Below, piece after piece: positions 1 through 57,689 of a stretch of 64,000 nucleotides of DNA. The first letter of the stretch is position 1; each line of letters starts with the position of its first letter. Below the pieces are notes generated by a model, which ran no database searches, was not told where the DNA came from, and was given only the letters and a program-made list of their open reading frames with translations. The DNA lies in NCBI GenBank assembly GCA_965655095.1, contig OZ296658.1, forward strand, positions 37,944,001 to 38,008,000. The letters run 5' to 3'. Both the position numbers and the translations under genes were made by a program. This DNA is from Haplodiscus bocki (taxonomy: Eukaryota).

Positions 1-107
1 ATTTCATATCATCACTCATTTTATTTCATCTCTCAATTCTCCTTCTTCTATTCCGTGATATTTTTATATTCTCCTTATCCATTATCATCTCTATTTATAT
101 AATATGA

Positions 108-153
108 ATTACTTGAAATGATTTATACAAAACCTCAAATATCTACACCATAC
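108..153 (-). promoter_or_regulatory. 46-bp repeated putative viral promoter module, copy 1
   Basis: attacttgaaatgatttatacaaaacctcaaatatctacaccatac; 39/46 identical to 11362-11407; on minus strand followed after 10 nt by TAAATA. Confidence 0.5.
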
Positions 154-451
154 TAGATAACGTATCACGAGGTTTAATTCCAATATTATAATTAGGAGTT
201 ATAATGAAATCATTTATATCAATATAATCGTGATAATCATCTTCGTATTCATTATCAATGATTTTATTTGCATCTCTAGTTTTAATAATAGTATAATACA
301 AATCATGATAATTTATATTCGTACTTTTAACCTCTGCTTTGGTCTGCAAAAATTCCATTAGAAGTAATATTTCGTGATAAATTTGACCAACACCTTTAGC
401 GTTTTTAGAAAAAGGATCTATATTATTGCTTTGAAAAATTTTATTTTTCAT
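143..451 (-). CDS. Polinton hypothetical protein
   Basis: 102-aa ORF, ATGA overlap with upstream ORF, same composition as the viral block; no recognisable motif. Confidence 0.55.
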   Translation of the reverse strand: MKNKIFQSNNIDPFSKNAKGVGQIYHEILLLMEFLQTKAEVKSTNINYHDLYYTIIKTRDANKIIDNEYEDDYHDYIDINDFIITPNYNIGIKPRDTLSSMV

Positions 452-990
452 TTCTTTATATAATCACTAATGTTTTTATAAAATTTTCGTTTTATTCTTC
501 CTTTTAATTGTTGTAATTTATCAATCACATTATCTAATGATAAATAGGCTATATTTACATTTATTTCTCTTATCTTTTTAATAGAATAGTTTAATCTACT
601 TGAAAAATCATGATCTTGTCTAAGAATTTTTTTATTAATCTGATGTTTCTGTTTATTGATAATATATTCACAATTAGTGCAATAATAACCTTTATCAAAT
701 TCTAACCAATTATTTCGTTTGCAGGATGGACAATTTGGCAAATCAGATTTTTGTTGTTGAATAATTGGTTGCTTATTTTTCTTTTTAGGATAATTTTTAA
801 CTATTAATTGATTATTATCATTCCTGATTACTTTTTGTTTTGTTCGTATTTTAGTGTTATTTTTAACTTGATATTGGTTTGTGAGAGATTTAGGTGGGTC
901 TCTTCTGCGTAATATTATATTTTCAGTAGGATGAATTTTATATCGATGATCCTTTACTTCAGCGTAATATTCTCCGTTTAGATATTTCAT
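448..990 (-). CDS. Polinton Zn-ribbon protein (paralog A)
   Basis: CPSC-x13-CTNC followed by NKQKH...FSSRLNY..KI; TAAATG start. Confidence 0.65.
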   Translation of the reverse strand: MKYLNGEYYAEVKDHRYKIHPTENIILRRRDPPKSLTNQYQVKNNTKIRTKQKVIRNDNNQLIVKNYPKKKNKQPIIQQQKSDLPNCPSCKRNNWLEFDKGYYCTNCEYIINKQKHQINKKILRQDHDFSSRLNYSIKKIREINVNIAYLSLDNVIDKLQQLKGRIKRKFYKNISDYIKK

Positions 991-1135
991 TTAAAAAAAA
1001 TATTCATATATGAATACATGTATTCGTATATGAGTAATTATGTGATATCAATATTATATCTGCAAATACTTCTCATAAAATCATAGTAATTTATATTTTC
1101 ATAATAAGATCTATCGTAATAACAAATGAATTTCA

Positions 1136-1558
1136 TTAATCTAACACTATCATGACCAATTTTATAAATACCACTTGATGTTCGTGACCAATAATTTTGT
1201 TCGAAATCAGGATTTTTTTTATCATATCTTTATATATCTCTATTAAGATATTGTTTATTTTTAATTTCTTATTTTTTAATGTTGATAAAACTTTGTATAT
1301 TTCATCATAATCATCATCTTCATATATTTTATATAAATCTACACATAGAGAAAATATTTTCACTTCTGCATATTTTAATCGGTTTATAAAATTAATTTTT
1401 TTTCTTTGTAATTTACTGAGTTCGTGTTTGCGTTTGTTTACGTTGAATCCACATGAGAAGCAATTAAATTCATATTCGTATGGTAGTAAAGTTTTTCTAT
1501 TGCAGTGGAGACATTCTTTAGCATATTTTTCAATTATTTGATCTTCAGTTAATTCCAT
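1136..1558 (-). CDS. Polinton Zn-ribbon protein (paralog B), probable frameshift near 3' end
   Basis: CLHC-x13-CFSC then NKRKH...FINRLKY..KI aligns by eye with 448-990; TAAATG start; an alternative frame continues to ~1040 after the T-run near 1215. Confidence 0.6.
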   Translation of the reverse strand: MELTEDQIIEKYAKECLHCNRKTLLPYEYEFNCFSCGFNVNKRKHELSKLQRKKINFINRLKYAEVKIFSLCVDLYKIYEDDDYDEIYKVLSTLKNKKLKINNILIEIYKDMIKKILISNKIIGHEHQVVFIKLVMIVLD

Positions 1559-1573
1559 TTATTAGGTTTTATA

Positions 1574-2428
1574 TTATTGAATTAAATTCAGTTCTTTCAT
1601 AACTTGATTGTTTTCTTCAAGAGATAGTTTAGTAGGTAAAAGCAGGTTTTGATTTTATCTCTCAGGTAAATAATTGATTCTATATGAGGGTATAGTATCG
1701 TGAATGACTTCAGTTATAGTATATAATTTATATGACCAATTTGTTGAATCACCTTTACTGAAGACTCGTTTAATATCAGCGGTTCTAACTAATTGTCCGA
1801 GTTTATATTTTGGTGCTTGTTTAACTCTTTGATCTTGAAGATTGGAATAGACTAAGTTTTCATTTACCTTTTTAGAAGCCTGATTGGGAGTCATTTTCGT
1901 TGAATGACGAATAGTATTATTATACTTTTTAATAATAGGTGATAATTCATTTATCCATGAAGCTTCACCAGCTAAAAATATTGGCTTTTTCGAAAAATTA
2001 CGTATAGTTCTATTAAATCGTTCTGCAAAAACAGCTCCTTTATCAGTATAGCGAGAATATCTTTTAATGTTATGATTGTTTAAAATTTCACTGAAAATTT
2101 TATTAACATATTCCTTACCATCATCGGTTTCGAGGAGAATTGGTTTACGTCTAGATGTTTTAATAATTTGAGAAAATGCACCAGTTAATGATTGTGCGTA
2201 TTTATTCTTCAGAGGTATTGTCCATCCAAATTTACTGAAAATATCAATCACTACTAAAATATATCTATAATCTTTATTATTTTTAATACCATAATCCTTC
2301 ATATCTAATAAATCTGAGGACCAGGTATCATCAATAGATTTGATTATTGTCTTAATAGTTGGATAATTTCTCTTTGGAGCTTTACTATAAATTTCATTGA
2401 TGAATATCGTTGTTAAGTCCTTCTTCAT
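1574..2428 (-). pseudogene. Polinton retroviral-like (rve, DDE) integrase, premature stop at 1655-1657
   Basis: DDTWSSDLLD, YILVVIDIFSKFGW, ETDDGKEY, AERFNRTIR, FSKG..TNWS motifs; frame continues past TAA (ER*NQNLLLPT...) to stop at 1574. Confidence 0.93.
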
Positions 2429-3005
2429 TTATTTTCAAAATTTGATAAGCTTTAATGAATTGAAGTTGATAATCTAGGAAATTGAATTTTGTTCCCTTTT
2501 TCTGATGATCGTGTTTGAGTAAGGGTTGTGTATTTTTCCAGGAGAATGCTTCTATTAATTCTTCATCTTTGGATACATCAAACAAACTAATTGCTTTAAG
2601 GTGATCGATTTCAATATTCGACCAAATCATTTCTGGAGTCAACTGATACTCAATCCATTTTCGATAAAGATCAATGTCTATACCTAAAATATCTCTAGTT
2701 GAAGAAAATTTCGATTTACCTTTTAGAGCATGATGAATTCTTCGTCTTGTATTACAAATTAAACGAAAATTAACATCCGTTTTTCTTCTGTTTTTTCGAG
2801 ATTCATAAATTTTAATCTTGTTGTTTTGAAAATAATTTTTGTTATAAAGGTTGATTTTATCTTTATTATTAGTTTGATATTATTTCCTTATCAATTTAAT
2901 ACAATCACGACATTGATTTCTATATTTCAGTGTGTCTCTTCTAATATTGAATTCAGATAATTCTTTTTCATTTTTACACTTAGAGCATTTCTTCATATCA
3001 TCCAT
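2394..3005 (-). pseudogene. HNH/endonuclease VII-like nuclease of the type common in NCLDVs, one internal stop
   Basis: Hand translation MDDMKKCSKC...CRDC...RRRIHHALKGK...ILGIDIDLYRKWIEYQLTPEMIWSNIEIDHLKAISLFDVS...AFSWKNTQPL...QKKG; 204 codons in one frame with TAA at 2880-2882. Confidence 0.75.
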
Positions 3006-3035
3006 TTTATTATAATCGCTTTATTTCAAATAATT

Positions 3036-3464
3036 TCACATCACTTTTAAAAGAAGGCCTCGTCCATGCATATCGGTTAGTGATAGAATCTTTCCACCAG
3101 TCAATGATTTTAAAATACTATTTGTAACTTTAGCTGACTGAGGAGTTTTTGTTTTTGCAGCAACATCGGCTGATATCAGTGGTGTAGCCATTTTCAAACC
3201 AGGTTTAATAAAGCTATCCCAAGCTTTTTTCGTTCCTGTGAAAATTTTTTGTAGTTTTGATTTAATCGATCCTCCTTCGAGCATATATTGATGTGGTGTG
3301 AAGGTAATAAATTTTTGACATCCACACTTTGGATTAGGACATTTGTCATGTAGTTTTAAAATATTGCCTTTACTATTTAAATCAGTCCATGCTGAATTTG
3401 ACATAGATGAACAGTGATTTTTACTACATTTTCATCTTTTAATAAAATCTTCTCCTCTAGTCAT
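3036..3464 (-). pseudogene. Basic Polinton virion core-like protein with adenain-type cleavage motifs
   Basis: True start probably TAAATG at 3464 (MTRGEDFIKR*KCSKNHCSSMSNSAW..., in-frame TGA); contains LEGG, LTGG, MHGRG. Confidence 0.55.
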
Positions 3465-3623
3465 TTACTTAGTAAAAATTTTTGATTTAATACGACCGCA
3501 AATATCAGAACTATCTTTTATAATTTTAACTAGTTTTTTAGTCTTCGGATTGACTTTTTCATATTGAGTGATATTATTAGTATTAGAATAATGCTTTCCA
3601 CCAACACACCATGTTTTTGTCAT
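3465..3623 (-). CDS. Small Zn-ribbon-like Polinton protein (52 aa, below ORF-track cutoff)
   Basis: MTKTWCVGGKHYSNT...SDICGRIKSKIFTK*; TAAATG start; its stop abuts the next ATG. Confidence 0.55.
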   Translation of the reverse strand: MTKTWCVGGKHYSNTNNITQYEKVNPKTKKLVKIIKDSSDICGRIKSKIFTK

Positions 3624-3729
3624 TTATATACTTAAAGTTATTCATAATACGGAGGAGCACTCGGTTGATAATCAATTTTTGATTTCTTTCTAGGTTTAAA
3701 CAAAATAATTTTGATATTTATATTTATAT

Positions 3730-4345
3730 TCACATTATCTTTGCTAAAAAATTATTTAATTTAGTTATGTGTTCTGGTGAAATAGAATCTTTACTTATTA
3801 CATCGCCAAAAATATCTTCTGCTTTAAATTTAGTTGAATTCATAATTCCTTTTCGTTTATCAACATAATGATTATATATCTTTTTTAATTCTTGAGCTTC
3901 TTTTTCATCAATTTTTTTTATCAATCATAGATTGATTTAATGTTTTATCATAGAGAATTGAAATAAAATTTATCCAATCTCTTAGTTTTGTATAACGCAA
4001 TTTTAATTTACTAATATATTCGTTTGTGATTAATATAGCAAGAGATGTAAATAGAGCTGAACAACTCGTTATGGGTATTCCTATAGATGGATTAATAAGT
4101 GAAAAACTAGTAGATGTTATAGCCGATGTAGATCCAACCAAAATTTCAGTAATAATTAACAATATTTTCTTTTTATTCAAATTTTTGTATTTTTTCTTAT
4201 AATATTCATTATCACTTTTAAATGACTTTAATATATTCTCAAAATCATGTTTTTCTGTTTGATATTTTAAATTTTTAATTTCATCATCTCTCGTTTTTAA
4301 TTTCAATATTTCTGGTTCGTTCTTTAAATCAGGATATGTCGTCAT
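3730..4345 (-). pseudogene. Polinton coiled-coil plus two-TM membrane protein, frameshifted
   Basis: ORFs 3908-4345 and 3730-3924 join across a T-run at ~3911-3919; two hydrophobic segments ILLIITEILVGS... and IGIPITSCSALFTSLAILI. Confidence 0.65.
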
Positions 4346-4348
4346 TTA

Positions 4349-4567
4349 TTAATCAGAAAATTCTTTTTCTAACAAATCCATTGCAGCAACTTCTTTTAAT
4401 ATTCTCTGTCTATGTAATTTCTCTAAAGCAATATTTCTTATAATTTCTATTTCATTATCAGTAAATTTAGATTGTTTTAATATATCTGAATCTGTTAGAG
4501 ATAATAAAAATATTAACGATCGTTCATGTCTAATATCTTCAAACAAATTTGAAAAACACGCTTCCAT
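4349..4567 (-). CDS. Polinton small hypothetical protein
   Basis: 72-aa ORF, TAAATG start; resembles upstream ORF 4568-4810. Confidence 0.55.
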   Translation of the reverse strand: MEACFSNLFEDIRHERSLIFLLSLTDSDILKQSKFTDNEIEIIRNIALEKLHRQRILKEVAAMDLLEKEFSD

Positions 4568-4810
4568 TTACTTATTCAAAATCTTTTCTATAATTGATTC
4601 TTCTTCATTTTTAATATAATCTAAGTAATCTTCACATTCTTCTAATAAAATATTTTAAAACTCTAAATTTAAGCCATTAATATCATTTTTACTAAAGCCT
4701 ATTTCTTTTAATAAATTTTTATCATTTTGAATTAAATATATTAATAATACTAATTTTCTATAATCAGGTAAAGATTTGAATACATCTTTAAAATAATTTG
4801 AGTTATTCAT
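4568..4810 (-). pseudogene. Polinton small hypothetical protein, one internal stop
   Basis: MNNSNYFKDVFKSLPDYRKLVLLIYLIQNDKNLLKEIGFSKNDINGLNLEF*NILLEE...ILNK*; TAAATG start; stop abuts next ATG. Confidence 0.5.
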
Positions 4811-4858
4811 TTAAAATTTATTATTCAAACAAGTGTAATTATACAATCATATATGTTT

Positions 4859-6187
4859 TCAATCAGGTGATTGTGTTATCGTTATATTACTAAAACACAT
4901 ATCAGCATGAGCACTATCAATTTGATCTTATATGATTTTAACTCCATATTTCTCGTCAGTAATATTTAAATTTAATATAGTCCAATCTGTTGCTGCATTA
5001 CTAAATTGAGTATTTTTAGCTATAACGAATTTAGTTAACCAAACGTTATCTTTTGTTAATATTTGTATTCTAAATCGACCCATTGCTCTTAAATCACCTT
5101 GTATTGAAAATCTATTATAGTAAATTGTAATATTGGATATCTGAATTATATCAATTCTCTCCCAACTACAAAAAACATTAGCTCCAAAATTATTATTACT
5201 AGTTTCTATATACATATAAGGATTACCTATAGGAGGAGGTATTGAAGCTCCAGAATTGTTTGTTGGTGAGCTTGTTTTTGTTGATCGTATGAAGTTCTGT
5301 ATTTTACCATTGTTATTTCTATCATTACAAAATTTTCGCCAACTAGGTAATAGGTGCCCTCCATTATTTGAGTTTTTCATTAAAGTTGTATCCGTTAATA
5401 GTATTTTATTATATATCTGAAGATTATAAGTTAAATTGTTAAGATTAATTTTCAAATATTTATCATTTGAATCATCATTTAATCTGACTATTGTATCTTC
5501 GTCTAGTTGGTCATCGACATCATTTTTGTTACAAACATGATTGTTATCTGTTGGAGTGTTATTAATAGTGATTGAATTTATATTTGTTAATTTGTTATCG
5601 TTGAAATCATTATCTTGATTATTTTTTACTAATTCATTTGATTCATTATAAAAATCAATACCTAAATCTCGTCTTGATCGTTCATTTTTTTGATGAAATT
5701 GATCAACATAAGCCTTTGTTATTACTTGATTATCATTAACTGCCTGAGTATTTAAAGTAATACTATTAATATTTGTTAAGTTATTATTGTTAAAATCGTT
5801 ATCTTTGTTATTTCTAACTAATGATGGTTCGGCTATAGAACTGTCGACATACAGCTTGGCTGATAAATGAGAATCTATTTGAGGTAATTGATTGACTGAC
5901 AAAAATCTGCAATTAGTAATAATTCTATCATTCAAATCTATATGAGCGTTGTTTTTTACTATACTAGAATCGTTAAATAAGTTATCAACGTAATTTTTTG
6001 AAGCTGCTTCTCGTATGCTGATAGGATCGAGCAAAATTTTAATTCTAAATTGATTTTTTAAGTCTATGTCTTCTTCATTATTAGCTTCTATATAATTAGC
6101 TCTCAAATATGGCTTTTGTACAAACAGACTTGTATCAATTTTATTATCAGAATTATTTGAAGAGTTTCGAAATACGTTAATAGGCAT
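4859..6187 (-). pseudogene. Fibre/spike-like protein: K-x-YVD repeats plus C-terminal MAM-like domain; premature stop at 4928-4930
   Basis: Four ~38-aa repeats ending ASKNYVD/SAKLYVD/ITKAYVD/CNKNDVD; head with GNPYMYIETS and, past the stop, ADMCFSNITIT. Confidence 0.6.
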
Positions 6188-6193
6188 ATTTAT

Positions 6194-6592
6194 TTAATCA
6201 AAATACATTTTGAGAATTGTAACATAATAATTCAATCTCTCAATCAGATAAAAAAAGTATAGACAATAACTACCACATAATTTTGAATTTATGTCTTGTA
6301 TTTTATAATTATGATATATTATTGGTTTAGGTAATTGATTTAACAGAAATTTATCAGGAGCTCCTCCAAAACTATCAAAATAATAGGATTTGTTATCTTT
6401 AACATAGAAAGCACACCAATGAGTACCTCCTCGAGATCCATTGTCTATATTAACAAATCCTTTATCAGAATATAATTCACTATCTCTGGGGTATATAGGA
6501 TAATTGTTAATTTTCTGTAATTCTGATTCATTCATAGTATCATTTTTTAATTTATATTTTTTCATAAAATCTTTAAAATTTAAAAGTTTCAT
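6194..6592 (-). CDS. Adenain-like cysteine maturation protease
   Basis: GTHW, YYFDSFG, IQDINSKLCGSYC give the His-Asp-Gln-Cys catalytic set; ORF intact. Confidence 0.92.
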   Translation of the reverse strand: MKLLNFKDFMKKYKLKNDTMNESELQKINNYPIYPRDSELYSDKGFVNIDNGSRGGTHWCAFYVKDNKSYYFDSFGGAPDKFLLNQLPKPIIYHNYKIQDINSKLCGSYCLYFFYLIERLNYYVTILKMYFD

Positions 6593-6607
6593 TTATTATT
6601 CATATAT

Positions 6608-7909
6608 TTACACTACTTCAACACTAATATTTTTATTACCATCAGAAATAATTTTAATTTCTCTATGTTTTATTAAGATTACATATAAAACGGTATTAGA
6701 TGAATTGGGATCATATTCCTCAAAAAATCTAATTTTCTATGGAGATATATGGTCTGCTTGAAATCTTAGATCAATTATTTGAATAGGATAATAGTTTTTC
6801 ATTTTATCGTATGATATAAAAGGAGATAATAAATGATCACCAACATATTCTTTGTAAAATAGTTTTAAATCTTTGTATTGTTCAAGATACTTGTTTTCTT
6901 CAAAATTAACCATGACAGGAATTTTTGGGTATCTAATTCCATTTTTTTCTGAATAATATTTTCTTACGTCAACATGATCGAAAATAGCATTATTGAATCT
7001 ATTGTTAGAAAGATTATTTGCTGGGTTAGCAGGATCGGGTCTCTGTGTTTTCTGATGTGCTGCTATGAGATATAGTGGACTGTTTATATTTGATGCTGAT
7101 GATAAATCTAGTTGAAATTCTCTTCCTGTATCAATTGGTTTTCTATCTGTAGTCCAAGATTCATATGATAAGGTAAAAGTTTGTGAAATGGCTTCATTAA
7201 AACTTACTTGTGTTTCAAGCGATGGTATTAATTGAGGAATAAACAAACTTATGCTATTAATAGCGACATTAACATCATCATCGTCTAGTGTTGTGTACAG
7301 AATATCTCGTTTTCTATATGATGTTCGTAAATCTAATTCAAAGCCAAGTCCTTTTGTTATTTTTTTAAACGATCTTGCAAATCCAAATATATATTCTAAA
7401 GGAAGGTGACCTCGTACAAGACCTCTATTAGCTTCAGTATGATTATCAATGAGTATCTTTTTCAAGGATGTATTATTGATTTTGTCCTCACTTTCATCAA
7501 TTATATCGAAATATGTAGATAAATCACCACCTTTTTCTGTTACTAATCTCATAATGGTTGAAATAGGGCCAACATATTTGTTTTGATCAATCTCTACTCC
7601 TGCTGATGTTGATATTCTAGCATCATGAATTGTGTAAGCAAAAGCGTTATTAACTAATCTAATAATATCATTTCCAGGAGCTACAATGGTGAAAGGATTT
7701 CCATCATCTCTTCTAATTCTTATATCAAATTCCAAATAACCATTACCTACTTGAATAAAATTATAATTTTCACCGAAAGAGAATTTAATTTGTGAAATTT
7801 CAGCATCAACATTAGCTCCGGATTGATGATAAATTTTTATGAAATCTCGTTTTATGATTGAATCATCAATTTTCTCATCATCTATCAATTGAAAGTCGTT
7901 AGCACTCAT
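6608..7909 (-). pseudogene. Major capsid protein (double jelly-roll), premature stop at 6737-6739
   Basis: ~433 codons; GYLEFDI, LVNNAFAYTIHDARI, LPLEYIFGF, NGIRYP, IIDLRFQ pattern typical of Polinton MCP; frame continues after TAG to 6608. Confidence 0.82.
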
Positions 7910-7926
7910 TTATTAGATATAGAATC

Positions 7927-8073
7927 TCACTTATAAACAATAAATCCATTTCCAGATAATAATTTATCTTTGAGACTTTGTAAATTTTTAGGTAAATTGG
8001 TAGATTTAATATCTTTTCGTATTTGAATTTGTAATTTAATTTTATATTCAGGATTATATCTCGTTTTTGTCAT
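7927..8073 (-). CDS. Small basic protein (48 aa) with LSGNG adenain-type motif
   Basis: MTKTRYNPEYKIKLQ...DKLLSGNGFIVYK*; TAAATG start; lies between penton and MCP. Confidence 0.45.
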   Translation of the reverse strand: MTKTRYNPEYKIKLQIQIRKDIKSTNLPKNLQSLKDKLLSGNGFIVYK

Positions 8074-8083
8074 TTAATAGGTA

Positions 8084-8868
8084 TTAAACTTCCTTGATAG
8101 ATAATCTGAAAATTACTGATTGTCCATTGAATGATACTAATTCATTGTTTTCATTTTTTAATTTAAAATTAATACTTGAAATAAAATCGTTAGTGTGTAG
8201 CATATACCATAGAATACCTCCACGGAAGTTATGAATATATTTATAACCAGGATCAACATCCATTGTAAAATTAAAGATTATTCCAGATCTTCTCCCTTTG
8301 AAAATCATACCTGAGCAATATTGGTTTCAATGAAAATATTATCAAATGATAAAATTTCAACTGGATTATCAGATAGATTATATTCATCATATATTGTTTT
8401 TTTATTAAAACCTAGTAGAAATCCAATACTATCACTCGGTTTGAATGAAATTGCAGATTCTTCATTTGATATCTCTACAATGCTTCCCAGCGTACTGAAA
8501 TTCGGTTTGATAACGAATGGATAAGTGTCTTCGGTAAAATGCTCATCATTAATAATAATCCTTTTAATCTCATCATTCAAACTTTCTATTTCGTAAGCGC
8601 CAGGAGGTATTGTAATCATTATATAATGATCATCGTCAGTGATTGATTTGGTGAAATGAAATTTGTGATTTGAATTGGTAACATTGAAAATACCATTATA
8701 AGCAGATAGAAACGTTACTGCTATTTTAAATTGTTTATTATTTGTCTGTAATGGTTGAAACAAATGCTCTTCGTGAGTACTTTTATCCATAATAATTAAC
8801 AAATGCTCTTCTATTTTAGGTCTTGTATTAAATGCTATTTGTTCTAATAACTTACTAGGTAATTCCAT
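8084..8868 (-). pseudogene. Minor capsid (penton-like, single jelly-roll) protein, frameshifted at ~8308
   Basis: ITIPPGAYEIESLN, LLGF, NIFIETNIAQ|GMIFKGRRSGIIFNF.MDVDPGYK, ISSINFKLKNENNELVSFNGQ: Polinton penton pattern over two ORFs. Confidence 0.82.
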
Positions 8869-8871
8869 TTA

Positions 8872-9713
8872 TTATGTTTGAAATTTGTCAAGAGCATTTT
8901 TATATTGTTGCTCATTTTGAATTTCTCTCCGCTTGTATAATTCATCAATTAATGCACTAGTTTCTGTAAGAATATCTGTATGACCAGACAATTTTAAGCC
9001 GAGTAGCATTTCTAATCTAGTGTAAATATCAATTATGTTAAATGGAATTATGATTTTTATTCTTTCTCCTCGTAAATCATCAGAGTTGTCTGTAATTTCA
9101 TCAAAAGTTTCATTTTGAATATCCTCAACTAGCTTCGGAAGTTTTTTAGCGAAAAAGGTTTTTCGTTTTGAATCTCGATCTCCTGTTCCATTATATCCTA
9201 AATCTCTTATAATATTATACATCTTTAAAATACATTTTCGTCTTTCATAGTATTTCTTGTGTATGTTGTATAAGTTAAAGCTTTATATATTTCTGGAGTT
9301 AATTCGTAAACATTTTTCTTTATTTTTATTGTATCACCTTCTGATATTTGAATGGGAACAACTAAAATATTAGCTCTACCTAATTCATCTTGAGTAATTT
9401 TTAGAGAATTACGACTATTCATTAATGATCCTATCATTTGTCTCATAGAATTACTAAAATTAGAACTATTTGGTAAAGCTTTTATATCAACCTTAGAATT
9501 TGTTTCTTTAATAACTTCACCTATTTCCTTAGTACTCTCATTAATAGTATCTAATTTTTTAGTTACAGGTGATAAATTTTCTGCTAATTTAACATCGTGA
9601 GTTTGTTTTAATATTCTATTTTTAATTTTAAGAGCTCGTTCATTTTTCTGTTGATTTGCTAATTTACGAAGATTAATTAAATCTTGTTCTGTTACTTTAG
9701 AATAAATACTCAT
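8872..9713 (-). pseudogene. Conserved Polinton protein, split by frameshift at ~9225
   Basis: ORFs 9225-9713 (LSPVTKKL, YELTPEIYKAL) and 8872-9222 (RLEMLLGLKLSGHTD...LIDELY) match N- and C-terminal patterns of one Polinton family. Confidence 0.6.
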
Positions 9714-9766
9714 TTATAAGACTCAAAAATAAAATATCTACTCATATAATTGTATGTATTCAAATT

Positions 9767-10491
9767 TTAAAAAGGACTCGTATTAGGAACAAATATACTA
9801 TTTAATCCTAATCTGTATCGGCCCTGATACTTATCTTTAGTCATATCAAAAGTAACTGGTTGATATTTTTCATTCCAGTAAGTACTAGTTATTAATTTGA
9901 ATTCATTCAGGGTCATATCCATAGAATTTTTACCTTCATAAAGATTTAATACATCTCTGAAATTGTTTGGTTTGAATATATGAAAGATATTACCATTACA
10001 ACGTATTGTTTTTTATTTAATTCATAGTAATCTTGACTTATTATAAAAGTAGATAAATTATTATGTCTAGATCTCTTAAACCTTGCTTGAAGTCTAGGAT
10101 CATCCATTTCTTTTTGATTTAAGTCATCTAAGATAATGATACTATTATTTTCATATTCTTGAGGAAATTTCAATTCTTCAATATTATCAAATGTTTCTAT
10201 TTCAGTATCTGATTTTTCAAAATCTTTATTATTAACTATCTCTTCAATAACCACATCAATATCTTCTTCATTGAGAATATTTGGGGTTATTTTGATTGAT
10301 ATATAATTACTAAAACATTTAATTAATTTTTGATATAAATCTTGATGAAGACTTGGTGAATAGATGTAAATTTTATCGTATTCGTTAATGATATTTAAAA
10401 TTAAATTTGTTAAGAAATAGCTTTTGCCGCATTCTGATGGTCCGCATATTATACATCTAACTGGATGAGTTGGATAAAGAATCTTCTCCAT
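9767..10491 (-). pseudogene. A32/FtsK-like DNA packaging ATPase, frameshift at ~10010
   Basis: Walker A GPSECGKS, Walker B IIILDD, RSRHNNLSTFIISQ; alternative frame continues KTIRCNGNIFHIFK...RYRLGL to 9767. Confidence 0.92.
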
Positions 10492-10527
10492 TTATATTTG
10501 ACAAATAAGTATAAGTACTTGAATATT

Positions 10528-10719
10528 TTATTTTTTATTGAACAAAGGTTTAATTACAGTATACCCCATAAAGGATATTAAACATACTAAAGACAATCCA
10601 CAAGGTATTATTGTAATTAAAGGTATTACTATCTCAATATTATTATCATTATCTGTACAATTTGATGTTAAAGTATTATTATAATAATCAATAATATCTG
10701 TAACGTTTGATATATTCAT
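10528..10719 (-). CDS. Small single-pass membrane protein
   Basis: N-terminal NxS/T sequons (NIS, NVT, NNT, NCT), hydrophobic segment, basic tail; TAAATG start. Confidence 0.5.
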   Translation of the reverse strand: MNISNVTDIIDYYNNTLTSNCTDNDNNIEIVIPLITIIPCGLSLVCLISFMGYTVIKPLFNKK

Positions 10720-11163
10720 TTACTTAATAGTAAATAATCACATTGTCTTGTAATAGGATGATTATCTTTAATATTAAGAGATTTTATTAGATTTGGATTT
10801 TTAATAATAACCATATTTATACGTCTCTCAAGCATAGACATAGGAGAATTCATATAAGATTTATATGTCATATTACACCTACAACTAATCATACTAATTT
10901 CCATATCTACAACTATCTATATAAAATATTAAATAATTCTTTATATTGATATAATCAGTGTTGAAATGTTGATTGATTTCTATTTTAGCAAAAATATTAT
11001 TTTTAAATTGGCAATCAATACAGTAAAATACAAATTTCTGATTATTAATATCGATAAATTTTTCGAAAATATGGTCAATTTCATCGATGTTAATGTTTTT
11101 AATAATATGTTTTGTATATAGACATTTAGCATTTTTTATGCAACTATTACAAATCTGTGTCAT
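10716..11163 (-). pseudogene. Polinton hypothetical protein(s), probably one frameshifted gene
   Basis: Overlapping ORFs 10894-11163 and 10716-10904 (PMSMLERRINMVIIKNPNLIKSL...HPI). Confidence 0.45.
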
Positions 11164-11171
11164 ATTTTTAT

Positions 11172-11348
11172 TTAAGTAGAAATATTTGAAATCGATTTCT
11201 TTTTATTAATATTGTTTATATGGATTCGAGATTTTAAATGATTTTTATAAAATCTCACAATACATAGATTATCACAGATATGACAATAAATGCGATATTC
11301 ATTATCATCTTCGCAATAAATAGCTTGTTCATAAATATCTTCATCCAT
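11172..11348 (-). CDS. Small C2H2-like zinc-finger protein (58 aa)
   Basis: MDEDIYEQAIYCEDDNEYRIYCHICDNLCIVRFYKNHLKSRIH...; TAAATG start. Confidence 0.6.
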   Translation of the reverse strand: MDEDIYEQAIYCEDDNEYRIYCHICDNLCIVRFYKNHLKSRIHINNINKKKSISNIST

Positions 11349-11361
11349 TTATTTAAATAAG

Positions 11362-11407
11362 ATTACTTGAAATGATTTAAATAAGATCTCAATTTTCTAC
11401 ACAATAC
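11362..11407 (-). promoter_or_regulatory. 46-bp repeated putative viral promoter module, copy 2
   Basis: attacttgaaatgatttaaataagatctcaattttctacacaatac; fills the divergent intergenic gap; on minus strand followed after 10 nt by TAAATG of ORF 11348. Confidence 0.55.
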
Positions 11408-11409
11408 AA

Positions 11410-11658
11410 ATGGAAGCTTCTGTAAATGTGATTAAACAAGATCATTTCGTATGTAATAAAATTAATAATATGTTAGATAGATATAATAGATTAACTTATG
11501 ATCATAAAATTGGAATAGCATATGATAATTTGATTCAAAATATTATTCTTAAAGAATTAAGGAATATGATGTCAGTAATGATAAGAGATTTAGATATGGA
11601 ATTAAAATTGAAAATTAGTAGAATAAACTATCTTGAAAGTATTTTTTATTGTATATAA
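11410..11658 (+). CDS. Polinton hypothetical protein (divergent cluster)
   Basis: 82-aa ORF; its stop forms TAAATG with a next, decayed ORF at 11659. Confidence 0.5.
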   Translation: MEASVNVIKQDHFVCNKINNMLDRYNRLTYDHKIGIAYDNLIQNIILKELRNMMSVMIRDLDMELKLKISRINYLESIFYCI

Positions 11659-11970
11659 ATGATTGGAGTAAACGATTTGAAAGATGTTTTGGATTCTATT
11701 GATATTGGTATAACTGATAATAATAATAAAACTCATTACATATTATATATATCTTTGATTCATAATTATTTTTTGAACGTAGAATGAATTGATTTTGGAA
11801 TACGATATAATATACTTAAACAATGTAACCTAATAATAACTAGATTGATTGATTCTGAAAATGGTAAATTGAGAGATGATTGGCTTAAAATGAGAAATTT
11901 GATTGTTCCTGATCTTATAGAAAAAAATGAAGAATTAAATAAAGCCGATCGTTATTTTAAATCCTTATAA

Positions 11971-12255
11971 ATGGAAACAATTAAAGATGTTTTAAACTTT
12001 CTTAATCAAATAGAAATATTTAGAATTATATCTGGCTTAGAATATAATACTTTTAATATTATTAGAAAAATTCTTATAGATGAAATTAACAACATAGATG
12101 GTGACAAATTAATTAAAATATTAACAAATTTAGATGATATATATAATAATTATATAAAAATGAATATTAATTTTGATAAAACATCAGTCGAATCGTTAAG
12201 AGATAATATCTTTGAAATCTATGAAATGAAAATATCAAATAATCATATTTGTTAA
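11971..12255 (+). CDS. Polinton hypothetical protein (divergent cluster)
   Basis: 94-aa ORF with TAAATG start. Confidence 0.5.
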   Translation: METIKDVLNFLNQIEIFRIISGLEYNTFNIIRKILIDEINNIDGDKLIKILTNLDDIYNNYIKMNINFDKTSVESLRDNIFEIYEMKISNNHIC

Positions 12256-12429
12256 CTATTAAATGGTTGTAAAAATGAAAGAATACTTCGAAAAGACTAG
12301 ACACATCATCAAAAATAACAACAAATCTAAAAAATACATTCTACGAGGACGAAGAAATGCAATATATCATAAAAAAATATTATCAAATAAAAAGAAATCT
12401 TACAATTCATCATAATTTGGTAATTTCAA

Positions 12430-12714
12430 TTTCTAGAAGACTATAATAGATACAAAGTTGAAATTTTCAGTGTACACTAATATTTCGACGAGCTTTCCAA
12501 AATTATATCACACTTTGCTCTAGCTTAAAATTTTATAATCTGTACATGTTTAAGCTATGTCGACATTTTGGGTTTTTGTCAGTTTTCTAGACGATTATAA
12601 TAGATACAAGGCTGAAAATTTCAACGTAAACATAACTTTCGACGAGCTATTCAAAAATATATCACACGTTGTTGTAGCTCAAAATTTTATAATCTATACA
12701 TGTTTAAGGATGTC
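12430..12714. repeat. Two diverged direct repeats (~130 bp matching, ~155 bp period) at the Polinton right flank
   Basis: tttctaga..actataatagatacaa...tttcgacgagct...tatatcacac...aaaattttataatct.tacatgtttaag..atgtc occurs twice. Confidence 0.85.
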
Positions 12715-13212
12715 GCCATAGTGTGTGTATTTCTCAGAAATCGTGTTTTTTCGCTTTAGACAAAAATATCCACTGGCCAACTTTCTAATTCTACTATTTC
12801 TAGCATATCCGAGTGAGCATTCCTGGCAGATATTCCCGTCGATCTATTCTACTTTTTCAAGCTTCAAGACATGGACAGTTCCTCCATATAGCTTTGCGCG
12901 TGATGTTGACATAGACAGTGGGACGTTGGTTAGTCGTGAACCACAAACACGACGACTATGCAATTAAGCACAGCCTTAACTTTAGTCTATGTAACAAATA
13001 CCACTAGGCTATTAGGAGACGAAATAGAAAGAGAGGTACTAGAATAAATATACATAAGGGAATATGATGACATAATTTTTCTCAGTCTCGTATATATGTA
13101 TGTAGACATAAATTGAAGAACAAAAGGCGAGGCTCGAAGAGCTGAGCAATAATATAAGCGAGAGGCTGACTGAAAGTAAGCCGGTGAGTGAGCAACGCGA
13201 ACGAGCGAGCGG

Positions 13213-13302
13213 GTATATTGTCGGATAATACCAGTGGCCGATGAGGGTGAAGGAGCAAAGCGACTGAGCTCTCAGAGGTTACTGGTATTATCCGCAATAT
13301 AC
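13213..13302. repeat. 22-bp inverted repeat (hairpin) with 45-nt loop
   Basis: gtatattg(t)cggataataccagt ... actggtattatccgcaatatac. Confidence 0.85.
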
Positions 13303-14213
13303 TATATTATTCATATGAATCATTTAAAATCCTTCAAAAATCTTCGGTAATATGGAAACTCATACAAAATTTTTTCGTAATATTGATGGTCATTTTGTGA
13401 AGTTTTTTTCACTGTGAGGAACTTAGCAAGACAATGTAACTTAGAAAACTCGTTTAACTTCACTAAATTCTTACTGTGTTGTCAACAAACTCAACGAAAT
13501 TATGAAAAAATTTGTTCAAAATAAGTAGTTCTGACCCATATACTTGCCCATTCTATATTACAAAACTTGCAATCAAAAATTTGATAATTTTCGAGTTTTT
13601 TCCCATCATTTTTCAGAAGTAAGTCTGGAAAACTTGCAATCACAATAAAGGAAATTATCTAGCTTAATCAGAGAATGGTACAAAATATGGCCCAAAAATA
13701 ATGTGCAGGTACCCATATAGTTCCCTTGTTTCCCATAAATACGTTCCCTGGTTTCAATTAAAAGTACATTCAGTTATCATTTTGATAGCTGATACTATCC
13801 ATGTTATTTCGTATTTTGCACTATCTTATCACGACAGTCATTGACGATCAACGCGGGTGGACGGAAAATTATTAGTTTAAATGCAGACATTATCTTAGCA
13901 AAAAATCGGGCGATTGCGTGATTAGCGAAAATTACCCGCTCAAAAATTTCATTTCTTCAAAGTTTTCAAAATTTGCATTAGATTGTGTATAAAATTTTGG
14001 TTTTTATAAAAAATGCGTTTCCAAACGATAGCTATTTAGTGTTGTTTTCAAAAAACTTTTGCCGTTATTTTGAAAAAGACTCCGTTTGTCTTTCAACGCA
14101 TTTCTGGCAAAATTGGGTCCCAGAAAATATGTCGGATCAGCCAAGCGTCTTGTTTCTACATGCAATGGTCTTTGAATATTTGAAGTTGAATTTTCTACGC
14201 TTTTTTATCTTAC

Positions 14214-19900: not shown

Positions 19901-22900
19901 GTTTGTGCCACAAATTAGAGTACTTGTTTTTGAAGTTTCGAAAATATTCAAAGTCAGTTGCAAGTTTTTGCAAAGTAGGTTCTGGATATTCCAATTTTGG
20001 GCAGTGTATTGAAAGTGGCCTAGTAGTTCTCATTATCATAATTGCGAGATCAATTAAGTATTTTTATGCAAACGGCTTTAATTATTTAATTGAGCAGTTG
20101 TTTTAATCTTGGGGATTTTGACCTTGGATATTTTAGGACCTCGGCTATTTTGGCCACGTGTATTCCAGACTTTGGATATTCTAGTTCTGTGTATTTCGTG
20201 TTCAGGTATTTTGAGGTGGAACCGTTTCACAAACCAATATTTTAAGCATGAAGCAGTGTGAGCTTCATGTTATGCTTTTTTGAGTTGTTCACTGTGCAAA
20301 TCTCTGAAACATTGAACCACCAAATTGTCAACCTAAACATGCATGATTGACAAACCAACTTTTCGAGTATAAAACGCCGTGACAAGCACTTGTCTCATTT
20401 CGACTTTTTCGAACAACTTTTTGAAACTTCTGGTGCAGTATATCTGAAAGTGTCAATCGAATCAAGGTGGAAATGTCTCTCAGGACGTTTAATCGGTCAA
20501 ATTTATCTTTAATTTCAACTGAGAAGTCAGAATGTCTTGGGAAATTGCGCTTCGCCTCTGTAGGAAATAAAAAATTTTCGTTGAAATGTATTCAAAACTC
20601 ATGTGTAATTAATGGTGCACTGCCACTTTTCAAAAAAAACAATCATGACGCTGCGTGAATTATTATTTTCCGCACAATATTTTCTGCACCTATTTTTAAC
20701 TATGGAAGGAAAAGCATCCACTCAATGCGTCCGGTTTTTACGTTTACTTGCCAACTGAAAGTGTTCGACTTCCGGCGGTTCTGAATTTGACAATGACTGA
20801 CATAGAAAAAAGTCTCAAATATGTACGAAAATTTTTCACGAACAATAGTGGGTCTTTTGAAAAACCTGATTTTTCAAAAAATCGGTAAAGGTGGCAAATT
20901 TGCTGTAGAATGCATATCAAGCATATTATTTTTTCAGATATATTTTTTCCACCTAAATTGAGGTTTTGCAAAAAGTCATGAAACTTTCAAATTTCCAGCA
21001 GTTTGAAACTTTGATGAATAGTTTTTGTACCTTGTGAAAATCATCTTCAACAAAGTTGGAGGGCAGAAAATATCCCGGTGGTAGCCGGGAGTATTGTTTG
21101 AAACAATTTAAAAAGATGTGTCCCGCTTGCCTAGGATGCCTTTTATTCCTCTGAACATTCGCTTCTTTCTCTTCTTCGTGACGACACCGCTGAGGGGGTC
21201 ACAAATATCGGTCAGAATAGTGGGCAACAGCTGGTACTTCCTCTTGTCACTCGTCAGTGAAAGCGGAACGTTCTTCAAGTTGTAATCATTGATAAACGGC
21301 TTCACTTCCATCTCAAAAATTGTCTCCAGGTACTGTTTACACGCAAGACGCTGTGTATCAAAGACTGACATAGTCAGGTCATTCAAGGGTCGGAGCAGTG
21401 AAAACTTGTTGGCGTGACTCATCAGAACTGCGGTCAGAGTTTTCTGGACCAACTCTTCAACTTTGCTCAGAGCCTCCATGGCAATGAGCTCCACATCCCG
21501 CATCTTGCGTTCCACGTGATTGCGATATATGGAGTATCGGGGGAACCCCCGGGGTTCAGGTCCCCTGTGGTTGATGTACTCCTCCCGCATTTCCTGATAG
21601 AGACCCCCATCTGGGATGAGAGCGGTGAGGACGCTGTGTGAGAAGTAGTCGTAAGCAGTGTTGTTGCTACAGTGGAGATGGTAGTCTGAAACAAAATAAT
21701 TCAATAAAAAGCTTTTCTAAATCCAATATTAGAAGAAGATAGTGAACCGTGACTCGGCTTTTCGAAACTCTCTCAATTTTTGTTGACGTCATTGCCAAAA
21801 AGCGAAGCCAGCAAGTGAGAATAGCGAGCCAATAAAAAGCGAGATGAAACTCAGTGATTGTGTTTCGGCAAACTCCTGTCTCTTTTTACCGGTTCTGAAA
21901 CATTTCCCAATGCGAAGAAGACCTGGCGACTTTTCGGTTTTGGTTTTGATTTCAGGCATGGTAACTGGAGGTGGCTTTGATTGCGAGCAAAGTTTCCAAA
22001 TTTTGAAAACTCACCACTTTTGTGCGGGCCTTGAAAATATAGTGAAGAATAATAGTGATGCTTCCTTTCAAAAGCGCCGATTGAACATCAAAATAATTAT
22101 TAAATATTGAATATTGAAAAAACGTGTAATTCGATTTGCTTTTCGTTCAGTTTGATGCACCAGTTATAACTGAAGCCTACAAATCCTACTTTCACACTCC
22201 CTCGTATCTTTTTCTTCCAGAGTCAACGCATTAAAGTCTGTGTTTATTCCGTCCACAATTTTGGAGAGTTCCACGTATTTGGATTTGTCATCTTCAAAAA
22301 TGACGGGGTACGATTTCTTTTTGGCCTCGGCTTGTCTGTACATATTGCGAATTTCGCCCACCAAAAGAGGGAGACTTCTTCTGGCTATCTGGTGAATAAT
22401 CCGACTGACAATTCTAACCAAATTGTCTGTTCCAGCTTTCTTATTTCTGTAGAGCTCACTGAACATTTCATGATTTTCAAAAAAATCTTTTTCCTTTTGG
22501 CGAGCCTCTTGAATCGTGGCGCCTGAAAAAAAAAACAAAAAAATCTGAATTGAGTTAGGTTTCAAATTTTAGTTTTGGTGTATGTTAATAACGTAATTCA
22601 ACTTTCTCAAGAATCCGATATCAGTAAAATCTTACAGTGAAAACTAAAATAGATACATATGCACTATCCGAGATTTTTTCAAGAAGTTTCGGATGTTGCA
22701 GAGATTTCATCAACATTCATTCATTACTTACACAAAAATTTAAGTTAAACTTGAAAAGTTTTTGCAGAAGTTATAATTTCTTGGAGTGAATAAACTAAAT
22801 ATTTCATATTAGAGGTTGATAAAAACGCGAAACCGCGTAACACGTGTAAAAGGGTCTGGCGGTAGTGGGGATCGAACCTGGACTTTTCTAATTCCAACAT

Positions 22901-37502: not shown

Positions 37503-37973
37503 CTTGTCATTTAGGATAAGACCATTCTTGTCGTTTTCTAAACATACGCGATATGCTTGGTTCTGAATCGACTGTTAGATGCTAACTACATTCTCGTAGA
37601 GGAAATCATAAAACATAAAACAGCTTCTTGATTCAAAATTTTTCCCGTAGGGTGGAAGGCATTCTTACTACGGTGCATTCCTGGGCGCAAGGCATTCTAA
37701 TTATTGCTATCCCATCCAAGGACCCACGGCTTTCTTACTAAGTTCTTGTTGCGGATTTTGCCAGGTATAGGGCTGTGCCGTAGTAAGTTATCACCCGGGT
37801 CTGCAAAACTCTGCAAATTTGTGCAAAACTCATGAAAGAAACCTGATTAATATCAAGGCGGCAGATGAACTTCTGTCCTTGGAAAATCTTATGGGATGCT
37901 TCTAAAACCATACAAAAAAGTTAGATGCATTGTAGAATCATGTCACGTTTTAAATGTTATCAAACTAGGGAGA
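37503..37973 (+). repeat. ~470-bp dispersed repeat, copy 1
   Basis: Reverse complement of 51745-52245 with high identity. Confidence 0.9.
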
Positions 37974-41390: not shown

Positions 41391-41629
41391 AAAATATGGG
41401 CGGAAAATAATAGTAGCTCAGGGTCTACTGTTTACTGGATCAGGTGCCAATTATTAGGCCCAGAAAACTAATTTCTTCAATAATGTTGGTACAAATATAT
41501 TAAAGATTTGAGCAGTGAATGCTGTAGATTGATGCATATTCAGACATTTACTCACGTGGCTGTGCTAGAAAACACTAGAAACTGCAAGAAAAGAGAACTG
41601 GCATTTTAATTGATGTGTGAGTGTTTCAG

Positions 41630-51744: not shown

Positions 51745-52245
51745 CTCCCTAATTTGATACCATTTAAAACGTGACATCATTCTACAATGCATCCAACTTT
51801 TTTTTGTATGATTTTGGAAACATCCCATAAGATTGTCCAAGGACAGAAATTCATCTACCGCCTTGATATTAATCAGGTTTCTTTCATGAGTTTTGCACAA
51901 TTTTGCACAGTTTTGCAGACCCGGGTGATAACTTACTACGGCACAGCCCTATACCTGGCAAAATCCGCAACAAGAATTTAGTAAGAAAGCTCTGGGTCCT
52001 TGGATGGCCTTAATAAGAAAGCCATGGACCCAGAGATAGCATTAATAAGAATGCCTTGCGCCCAAGGATGCACTGTAGTAAGAATGCCCTTCACCCCATG
52101 GGAAAAATTTTGAATCAAGAAGCTGTTCTTTATGTGTTATGATTTCCTCTACGAGAATGTACTTAGAATCTATCATTCGATTCAGAACCAAGCACATCGC
52201 GTATGTTCAGAAAACGACAAGAATGGTCTTATTCTAAAGGACGAG
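51745..52245 (-). repeat. ~500-bp dispersed repeat, copy 2 (inverted), cut off by the Gypsy LTR
   Basis: Reverse complement of 37503-37973 with an internal ~30-bp duplication. Confidence 0.9.
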
Positions 52246-57650: not shown

Positions 57651-57689
57651 GGTCTCCGAGTTCAACTGCTAATCAGTCCAAGAATTCAA

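Follow-up and report, generated by a model that had tools for sequence, protein, structure and literature searches.

It has long been an open question whether the Polintons of animals live as autonomous transposons, as autonomous viruses, or parasitically on larger viruses. The question is raised here by a Polinton family of Haplodiscus bocki (more than 200 copies in the genome), which offers a testable answer at the level of sequence: promoters of helper type in two temporal classes and a putatively helper-derived polymerase subunit. One decayed copy, 17,545 bp in total, lies at the edge of the window (the whole stretch of 64,000 nucleotides that was analyzed), where its right-hand 13.3 kb occupy positions 1..13311 of the minus strand. 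Its left end is 4,234 bases beyond the window start, and the outside part contains a fragmented locus for a protein-primed family B DNA polymerase (pPolB) and the second terminal inverted repeat (TIR). The TIR within the window (12234..13311, 1,078 bp) is 98% identical to that partner, and the 6 bp target-site duplication (TSD) that follows it (13312..13317) has an identical hexamer at the far end. Neither these true ends nor the promoter at 88–118 described below appeared in the first-pass annotation.

Copies in the family are 17–19.5 kb long, many of them with AGTAGT-type ends. Paired TIRs within copies are up to 99.5% identical, 18 of the 27 copies of subfamily A were flagged as having a TSD (one of them doubtful), and GC content is ~0.26, compared with 0.38 in control Polinton families. 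The element is a Polinton/Maverick: pPolB (PF03175, E 7e-15 in a sister copy, with homologous fragments left of the window in this one), an rve integrase, a double-jelly-roll (DJR) capsid protein, an A32 ATPase, TIRs, and a 6 bp TSD are all present. The major capsid protein (MCP) has its match in PF21738, and the listed profile matches included no virophage capsid family. We therefore use "virophage-like" for an element that would work like a virophage, and do not file it with the taxonomic virophages (mavirus, Sputnik).

The genes of the window copy lie on the minus strand and begin at TAAATG unless stated otherwise. The polymerase locus has its promoter and start codon at 88..118, with TTTCAA (113–118), 15 bases, TAAAT (93–97), and the ATG (88), an intermediate-type geometry. 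Then come a gene for a zinc-ribbon and helical protein (143..990, start 990), in two frames here, ~280 aa in other copies, and without a family match; a paralog, likewise zinc-ribbon and helical (1136..1558), without an assigned fold; the rve integrase (1655..2428; PF00665, E 3e-10); fam9, a conserved 142-aa gene (3036..3464) whose frame is broken after 10 codons and whose TAAATG doubles as the stop of the upstream gene; and fam17, a conserved 52-aa gene (3465..3623). Three conserved small genes (3908..4810; starts 4345, 4567, and 4810) each have a T ten bases ahead of TAAAT (T at -10). A 419-aa repeat-rich, putatively fibre-like protein (4928..6187) starts with TAAAT-ATG, and a putative adenain-like protease (6194..6592) matches PF00770 at E 0.006, below the cut-off as in the other copies examined (E 0.006–0.018). 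The DJR MCP gene (6737..7909; PF21738, E 1e-15) encodes 390 aa here and 433 in most copies. It is followed by fam15, a conserved 48-aa gene (7927..8073); a putative minor capsid gene (8084..8868), so labeled from position and size only; fam10, a conserved 280-aa gene (8872..9713); and the A32-type packaging ATPase (9767..10491; PF04665, E 4e-10), the last three all split here. Two genes lie in 10528..11163: a small one that starts with TAAATG at 10719 and includes a hydrophobic stretch, and a split zinc-finger gene whose start at 11163 is not TAAATG but has TAAAT 7–11 bases upstream. The 58-aa gene fam22 (11172..11372) is of intermediate type, with TTTCAA (11367–11372), 15 bases, TAAATG (start 11348), and no T at -10. 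Four small genes occupy the plus strand (11410..12415); 11410 lacks TAAAT, and 11659, 11971, and 12263 (the last inside the TIR) have TAAATG with T at -10.

The first-pass annotation had proposed that genes of this element start with a poxvirus-like TAAATG, and all 19 positions that it listed do read TAAATG on the stated strand. The two exceptions for which it reported a nearby TAAAT were also confirmed (TAAAT-ATG at 6187; TAAAT 7–11 bases upstream of 11163), as was its estimate of about four stop-starts, since the TAA is the upstream stop directly at 3464 and 11659 and is 3 bases away from it at 4345 and 8868. Within bases 1–12,430 there are 459 ATGs, and 34 are TAAATG: these 19 starts and 15 others whose frames run to at most 19 codons. 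TAAATG is thus found at 19/25 starts and 15/434 other ATGs (Fisher p = 1.3e-19, with the earlier reader's count of 25 as the denominator), and at 38 of the 1,600 ATGs in the host-side DNA (13,000–64,000). Starts 3464 and 11659 open merely 10 and 42 codons in this copy; because both match conserved starts in other copies, we regard them as true starts of decayed genes.

The predicted enrichment across family copies is also present. In 37 copies, TAAATG occurs at 365 of 468 homologous starts, compared with 4.0–4.4% of 16,853 other ATGs. TAAAT is kept out of frame at 48 further starts (33 TAAAT-ATG and 15 TAAAT-A-ATG), so that 413/468 carry TAAAT plus G or A in three exact forms. As the copies share ancestry, the effective sample is about the 20 gene families compared. 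In one of these, anti77, TAAAT is missing from 13 of the 26 copies. When one mechanical rule was applied to long ORFs, TAAATG was found at 195/370 in this family and at 2/104 in the other Polinton families of the same genome, represented by seven copies (p 3e-25). It was found at 0/8 host gene starts. Relatives from metagenomes (46–58% MCP identity) have TAAAT at 10/10 of the homologous starts displayed.

TAAATG could simply be the stop-start (termination-reinitiation) junction of a compact, AT-rich, polycistronic genome. The TAA is indeed the stop of the upstream gene in many copies of fam9 (20/29), fam12 (17/26), mCP (9/25), and TM60 (7/31), and because of decay these are undercounts. Overall, however, it is a stop at only 62 of the 365 TAAATG starts, and at none in MCP (0/28) or in three other families (0/27, 0/23, and 0/21). 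The 48 out-of-frame starts and the TAAATG of divergent and TIR-first genes do not fit such a junction, and the upstream features described next are left unexplained by it. This reading is largely refuted, and we give it hardly any credence.

The sequence ahead of TAAAT is conserved as well. In 17 of 20 gene families, most starts have a T ten bases ahead of TAAAT; the -10 column is the peak of upstream conservation (0.92, versus 0.54–0.67 at -30 to -17; 12 families), and within the window T at -10 accompanies 16/21 starts, compared with 61/156 of all TAAAT in the element. A T at the tenth base upstream of TAAAT is described as the signature of vaccinia late promoters (PMC11980589). A second feature is the arrangement TTT[C/G]AA-N15-TAAAT, which occurs 123 times, compared with 8–57 times for each of 39 other spacings. 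This core lies 15 bases upstream of TAAAT in pPolB (17/18), the rpo18-like gene discussed below (8/10), and fam22 (5/5), and also upstream of some zinc-finger genes, but not in MCP (0/28). T at -10 is missing from the rpo18-like gene (0/10) and fam22 (0/5), as in the account of vaccinia intermediate promoters in PMC11980589; pPolB has both features, and the structural genes and most others have the late-type T.

Vaccinia promoters likewise have TAAAT(G/A) over the start codon, with the late T at the tenth base upstream or, in intermediate promoters, an AT-rich core 15–19 bases upstream without that T (as described in PMC11980589, PMC12917281, and PMC5294985); in one example, the G8R oligo given in PMC12917281, the sequence reads TTTAAA, 15 bases, TAAA. 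The core is fixed in the element, whereas these sources describe a vaccinia core without a consensus. In sequence, then, the promoters of the element match vaccinia late (T at -10) and intermediate (core at -15) features.

The element might instead be autonomous and nuclear, with host Pol II reading TAAAT and the upstream motifs, perhaps together with a zinc-ribbon factor of the element, and with the rpo18-like gene aimed at a host polymerase or carried as anti-pox cargo. TATAAAT looks like a TATA box, the integrated copies sit in the nucleus, zinc-ribbon proteins are encoded by the element, and more than 200 germ-line copies stand beside no trace of a helper. However, a TATA box over the start codon would make transcription begin downstream of the ATG (Pol II geometry as given in PMC5294985), and the motif is missing from host genes and other Polintons. 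Sense-strand AATAAA is also frequent within the family and hardly avoided (1,166 observed, 1,227 expected), at 3.5 per kb versus 0.4 per kb in controls. Fold searches with the zinc-ribbon protein found no TFIIB/VLTF-like match, which is inconclusive. We consider an autonomous nuclear element quite improbable. The lack of introns, which had been put forward as a distinguishing trait, does not separate the alternatives, as a control Polinton family likewise has an uninterrupted polymerase frame of 1,421 codons.

An RNA polymerase encoded outside the window would have spoken against a helper, but that part was read and encodes no catalytic RNA polymerase, and no gene for an RNA polymerase or capping enzyme is among the ORF families of the 37 copies. 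What 12 of the 37 copies do carry (it is missing from 25, including the window copy) is a gene for a poxvirus rpo18-type RNA polymerase subunit, with at least 150 copies in the genome. The protein matches PF03293 at E ~1e-14 to 1e-21 (50.6–76.9 bits; curated cut-off 25), and a PDB search returned vaccinia rpo18 as the sole match (E 2.6e-18). The gene is under purifying selection (dN/dS 0.38; dN<dS in 185/187 pairs), and neither host RPB7 exon 1 nor RPC8 gave a usable BLAST match to it.

These data bear on the possibility that the helper is not a poxvirus proper and instead belongs elsewhere among the cytoplasmic Nucleocytoviricota (egovirus-, asfar-, or other NCLDV-like), with the same initiator grammar. 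Identity to named poxvirus rpo18 is just 22–36%, and in a 15-row tree the rpo18-like rows were unplaced, on a long branch outside the pox group (poxviruses with two environmental rows, 89/99). In the ESM Atlas, unnamed Nucleocytoviricota clusters (0.91–0.93) rank above the pox cluster (0.87), and egoviruses are described as having donated a gene to Trichomonas polintons (10.1101/2024.03.23.586382). Against this, Pfam, PDB, and a profile search of 1.8 billion proteins name Poxviridae rpo18 alone (sea otter poxvirus, carp edema virus, and salmon gill poxvirus in the last), ASFV RPB7 had no PDB match at E<=10 and ranked 41st in a fold search, and T at -10 fits the vaccinia description. Such a helper is unlikely, although the donor of the gene may have been a relative of poxviruses rather than a poxvirus. 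For the "pox/asfar-like" helper first proposed, the unmatched ASFV RPB7 favours the pox part over the asfar part.

Searches of the genome for VLTF3, D13, NCLDV capsid, and Rap94 gave no match, a weak result as the controls of these searches were silent, and neither of the 2 Rpb2 loci found is of viral type. The proposal of an animal host is supported: named matches listed for the host RPC2 are nearly all animals, at 62–65%. That no helper was found, together with the decay of the window copy and many others, would suit a reading in which an ancestral dependence on poxviruses left the promoters and the rpo18 gene behind as relics, with later growth in copy number driven by the host or free of a helper. 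But lineages with MCP dS of ~0.8 and dissimilar upstream DNA have retained both the motif and the -10 T, and the near-identical TIR pairs show recent insertions that still bear the motifs. We judge the relic reading very improbable.

The best interpretation is that the Polinton is a virophage-like parasite and that an unsampled pox-like helper likely provides the RNA polymerase that transcribes it in the cytoplasm. Cytoplasmic transcription by such a helper, as first proposed, is strongly supported by the family-wide conservation and specificity of the motif, T at -10, the intermediate core, and the rpo18-type gene. In a co-infected cell, the intermediate machinery of the helper would first express pPolB and regulators, and its late machinery would next turn to the genes for capsid, ATPase, and protease. 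The mRNAs of the element would acquire 5' poly(A) leaders through slippage on TAAAT. Replication by the element's own pPolB would be followed by self-packaging, and its rve integrase would provide entry into the germ line. Access of a cytoplasmic polymerase to a nuclear element copy has no explanation within the helper model.

We tentatively predict that the rpo18-like protein docks on the helper polymerase and biases or impairs it. The protein is a candidate for a natural modulator of the poxvirus RNA polymerase. That the host gains a net antiviral benefit is a candidate role that we find somewhat doubtful. Equally speculative is the full reading of an endogenous poxvirus virophage in an animal, which would plug into the intermediate and late stages, redirect or cripple the helper polymerase through the captured and remodelled subunit, and persist as hundreds of germ-line copies that act as an inherited anti-poxvirus defence; if true, a deep poxvirus lineage, so far unsampled, should exist within this group of invertebrates. 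The family points to an undiscovered pox-like virus. The same genome holds, side by side, Polinton families without helper-type promoters or the polymerase subunit. Start-codon context is a possible screen for helper dependence across animal genomes.

The family differs from known Polintons/Mavericks (Polintoviricetes), whose core genes, TIRs, and 6 bp TSD it shares, in its pox-type promoters at most starts, its low GC content, and its rpo18-type cargo. Neither TAAATG promoters nor an RNA polymerase subunit turned up for any Polinton in the literature searched (main texts of mostly non-subscription papers). The helper of mavirus and EMALE04 of Cafeteria belongs to the mimivirus family. These elements also combine rve with pPolB, integrate, and are linked to their helper by a helper-type late promoter, and in their protist host reactivation and protection are demonstrated (PMC10945749). 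The present family differs in its animal host, its two classes of pox-type promoters, and its PF21738 MCP.

Entomopoxvirus-associated PLVs are likewise small capsid-coding elements tied to animal poxviruses, with gene exchange (Barth et al. 2024, PMC11296320). They are described there as ~12 kb long and co-packaged in occlusion bodies, with pPolB members in which no integrase was detected and one copy integrated in a beetle; the words "promoter", "TAAAT", and "RNA polymerase" do not occur in the main text. The family analyzed here, in contrast, has a proposed regulatory link, the full rve and pPolB set of a Polinton, more than 200 copies, and an rpo18 that resembles chordopox and fish-pox proteins. 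The pGKL linear virus-like elements of yeast are cytoplasmic and of pPolB type, and their TAAAN initiator yields 5' poly(A) leaders by slippage (PMC6211774); their genes include those for an RNA polymerase and a capping enzyme of their own (PMC6211774), whereas the Polinton encodes no catalytic subunit and integrates.

The copy of the element that reaches into the window ends at 13,311 and is 17,545 bp long, with 1,078-bp TIRs that are 98% identical and a 6-bp TSD. Pfam searches of this copy identified an rve integrase, a DJR capsid, an A32 ATPase and, weakly, an adenain-like protease, and the adjoining stretch holds the second TIR and a fragmented pPolB locus. By these features the element is a Polinton. 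The window copy is decayed, with several genes shortened or split. Within its TIR (12430-12708) are two 125-bp direct repeats with 154 bp between them. We scored at least 106 capsid matches in the genome for the window subfamily and at least 100 for a second subfamily, the capsids of the two being ~58% identical. All counts below rest on 27 copies of the first subfamily and 10 of the second; capsid-selected copies were hand-picked from the match lists, mostly with intact capsid frames, and 7 extra copies, reached via the rpo18-like gene, were used in the dN/dS count only. The elements measure about 17–19.5 kb, with a GC content of 0.24–0.28. In two groups of stretches (L085-L087 and L088-L090), the TIRs are expanded to 1.4–2.9 kb, and each end carries a copy of the rpo18-like gene and of part of pPolB. 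The labels "fibre-like" and "minor capsid" and the family numbers are our own.

The first-pass annotation had proposed that TAAATG, a poxvirus-late-like initiator, stands at 19 of the 25 gene starts that it inspected in the window copy. All 19 positions do read TAAATG, and both exceptions that it named are as described: 6187 is TAAAT-ATG, and 11163 has TAAAT 7–11 bases before it. TAAATG occurs at 34 of the 459 ATGs in bases 1-12,430, namely these 19 starts and 15 ATGs that open 19 codons or fewer. The motif is enriched at starts (19/25 vs 15/434 other ATGs, p = 1.3e-19, with the annotation's number of starts as the denominator); flanking host DNA has it at 38 of 1,600 ATGs.

We located homologous starts through short N-terminal patterns, excluding ORFs that fitted no pattern. 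This gave 468 starts from 20 gene families, of which 365 are TAAATG, 33 TAAAT-ATG, and 15 TAAAT-A-ATG; 7 others have TAAAT within 14 bases, and the 48 that lack it include 18 pPolB starts and 13 from one small gene. At pPolB, TAAAT sits slightly farther upstream (within 20 bases in 18 of 19). As copies share kinship, the independent units are gene families. Among other ATGs, the frequency of TAAATG was 4.4% (of 9,923) and 4.0% (of 6,930). On these counts and those in the window, we rejected AT-richness as the cause of the motif. Conserved antisense shadow ORFs (clusters 16, 20, 21, 24, 29, and 31) have no TAAAT start. A pattern-free rule, which takes the first ATG of forward ORFs of at least 100 codons, found the motif at 195 of 370 starts in the element vs 2 of 104 in Polintons of other families from this genome; these controls are GC-richer than the element and comprise 7 copies from 10 stretches, three stretches being excluded because they were extensively rearranged or carried nested insertions. 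None of eight host starts (the first ATG of the long ORF in seven actin-family genes and RPC2) is TAAATG. In six metagenome contigs with capsid identities of 46–58%, TAAAT is kept at 10 of the 10 homologous starts shown. The motif might instead couple the stop codon of one ORF to the start of the next, and TAA does end the upstream ORF in 62 of the 365 TAAATG cases, mostly in four families; because it does so in just these cases, coupling is secondary, and as an explanation of the motif it is extremely improbable.

A GC-richer, decayed Polinton of another family, without TAAATG starts, lies 16–27 kb left of the window (L099:3300-10000 and L002:1-4000, two of the stretches examined), and a capsid search with it yielded young near-identical copies and more families, which were used as controls. 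The stretch of one copy of the element also holds a LAGLIDADG-like ORF with a TAAATG start (L033:332-919, minus strand; PF14528, E 2e-6), possibly a further helper-derived passenger.

In vaccinia, late promoters have TAAAT(G) and, at the tenth base upstream, a conserved T; intermediate promoters combine TAAA with an AT-rich stretch 15–19 bases upstream, without T at −10 (PMC11980589). The TAAA initiator is read by the viral polymerase itself, and core spacing matters (PMC12917281). In the element, T ten bases before TAAAT is the majority base in 17 of 20 families, the best of 25 positions scored, and this column is the upstream conservation peak; we observed the T-rich patch before making the comparison with the published vaccinia description. 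TTT[C/G]AA stands 15 bases ahead of TAAAT 123 times, vs 8–57 times at other spacings. This core is present at pPolB (17/18), the rpo18-like gene (8/10), and family 22 (5/5), partial in two zinc-finger clusters (11/16 and 17/40), and absent at MCP (0/28), the putative minor capsid (0/25), and the ATPase (0/21); in the window it occurs at 113-118 and 11367-11372. The rpo18-like and family 22 promoters lack T at −10, and pPolB has both core and T. Judged by sequence, the upstream grammar of the element matches that of poxviruses.

TTTTTNT, the early terminator of poxviruses, was not consistently depleted, and element, host, and controls could not be told apart by CpG ratio. AATAAA is frequent and little avoided on coding strands (3.5/kb, 1,166 observed vs 1,227 expected; controls 0.4/kb), a pattern consistent with transcription in the cytoplasm, though weak evidence by itself. 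Of the ORF families tested in the copies, none encodes a capping enzyme or a catalytic subunit of RNA polymerase, and the proposal of a helper thus withstood the search for an RNA polymerase that the element might have encoded outside the window. Nuclear autonomy of the element is improbable.

The rpo18-like gene (142–149 aa) lies close to one end in 12 of 37 copies, is absent from the window copy, and in some copies falls within both TIRs; its matches in the genome number at least 152, from 150 scored of 565 candidates. The proteins match PF03293 with E values of 1e-14 to 2e-21, and one of four matches the cellular Rpb7 model at just E 0.03. Vaccinia rpo18 was the only match in a PDB search, and among ten matches looked up from a 1.8-billion-protein search the three named ones were all rpo18 (sea otter poxvirus, carp edema virus, and salmon gill poxvirus). 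Against host RPC8 and exon 1 of host RPB7, BLAST gave no usable match. The predicted model was poor (pLDDT 54), so that a fold search placing pox rpo18 near the top has little weight. Against a plain poxvirus origin stand the identity of 22–36%, an unplaced position in the tree, and the Atlas search, which favors unnamed NCLDV clusters; that another NCLDV serves as helper is nonetheless unlikely. A second pox gene was not found by Pfam among 37 further ORFs, and a Pox_F16 match (E 0.03) was dismissed. Two unnamed environmental rpo18-like proteins (P0333 and P0345), which group with poxvirus rpo18 in the tree, are candidates for unsampled pox-like lineages.

The rpo18-like protein lacks a C-terminal segment of ~15 residues found in the three named pox proteins, and its dN/dS is 0.38 (187 pairs) vs 0.14–0.18 for five core genes. 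That the promoters and the subunit are a relic is very unlikely. Because rpo18 touches the capping enzyme in the vaccinia intermediate initiation complex (PMC12917281), a remodelled copy could, by analogy, bias the helper's polymerase.

In the genome searched for helper genes, VLTF3, Pox_Rif, Capsid_NCLDV, and Rap94 gave no match, and the controls were silent too. An Rpb2 domain search returned two loci, host RPC2 and one locus in three pieces, with a sensitivity limited enough to miss an expected third host paralogue. Scans of IMG/VR with the MCP, the MCP alignment, and the rpo18 alignment found no relative. An element-encoded TFIIB/VLTF-like factor was unsupported, the zinc-ribbon protein considered having no family or fold match (PDB, BFVD, VIA, and Atlas). 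The named matches listed for host RPC2 were nearly all animal (62–65%), with no close named relative, which indicates that the host is a long-branch animal. Host RPC2 (L100:5600-8998; 1,132 codons) is intronless, as are several actin-family genes.

The element thus has Polinton anatomy, two promoter classes, a captured subunit, and no catalytic polymerase of its own, and it is probably transcribed via a pox-like helper, itself predicted. Transcription would take place within the virus factory, intermediate-class genes first and late-class genes later, and slippage, which has been described on TAAAT (PMC6211774), would give the mRNAs 5' poly(A) leaders. The element would work like mavirus and EMALE04, where an integrated element's response to the helper can be predicted from a common late promoter (PMC10945749; 10.1101/2025.10.09.676808); the likeness to virophages is one of lifestyle and not of taxonomy. 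An antiviral role is conceivable but doubtful. Poxvirus-associated PLVs have been published (PMC11296320; 10.64898/2026.10.13.758929) and called the first pox parasites (10.64898/2026.06.19.733378), and for KilA, transfer from relatives of poxviruses into Polintons has been reported. In contrast to the element described here, the main text of PMC11296320 presents no promoter or polymerase-subunit evidence, and a literature search covering main texts turned up no Polinton for which TAAATG promoters or a subunit of RNA polymerase had been described.

The host DNA beside the element includes exons of a dynamin-family GTPase (Dynamin_N and Dynamin_M; 21108-29707, minus strand) 8 kb away and a near-perfect hairpin at 25344-25697, with 177-bp arms (97%) and no spacer. 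A Scramblase-family ORF forms one 241-codon frame (41621-42346, plus strand; PF03803, E 2.5e-27) flanked by long inverted repeats (~37,503-37,976 and ~51,741-52,245), and a decayed LTR-retrotransposon-like pol with RT RNase H and rve matches occupies 55832-62997 (plus strand).
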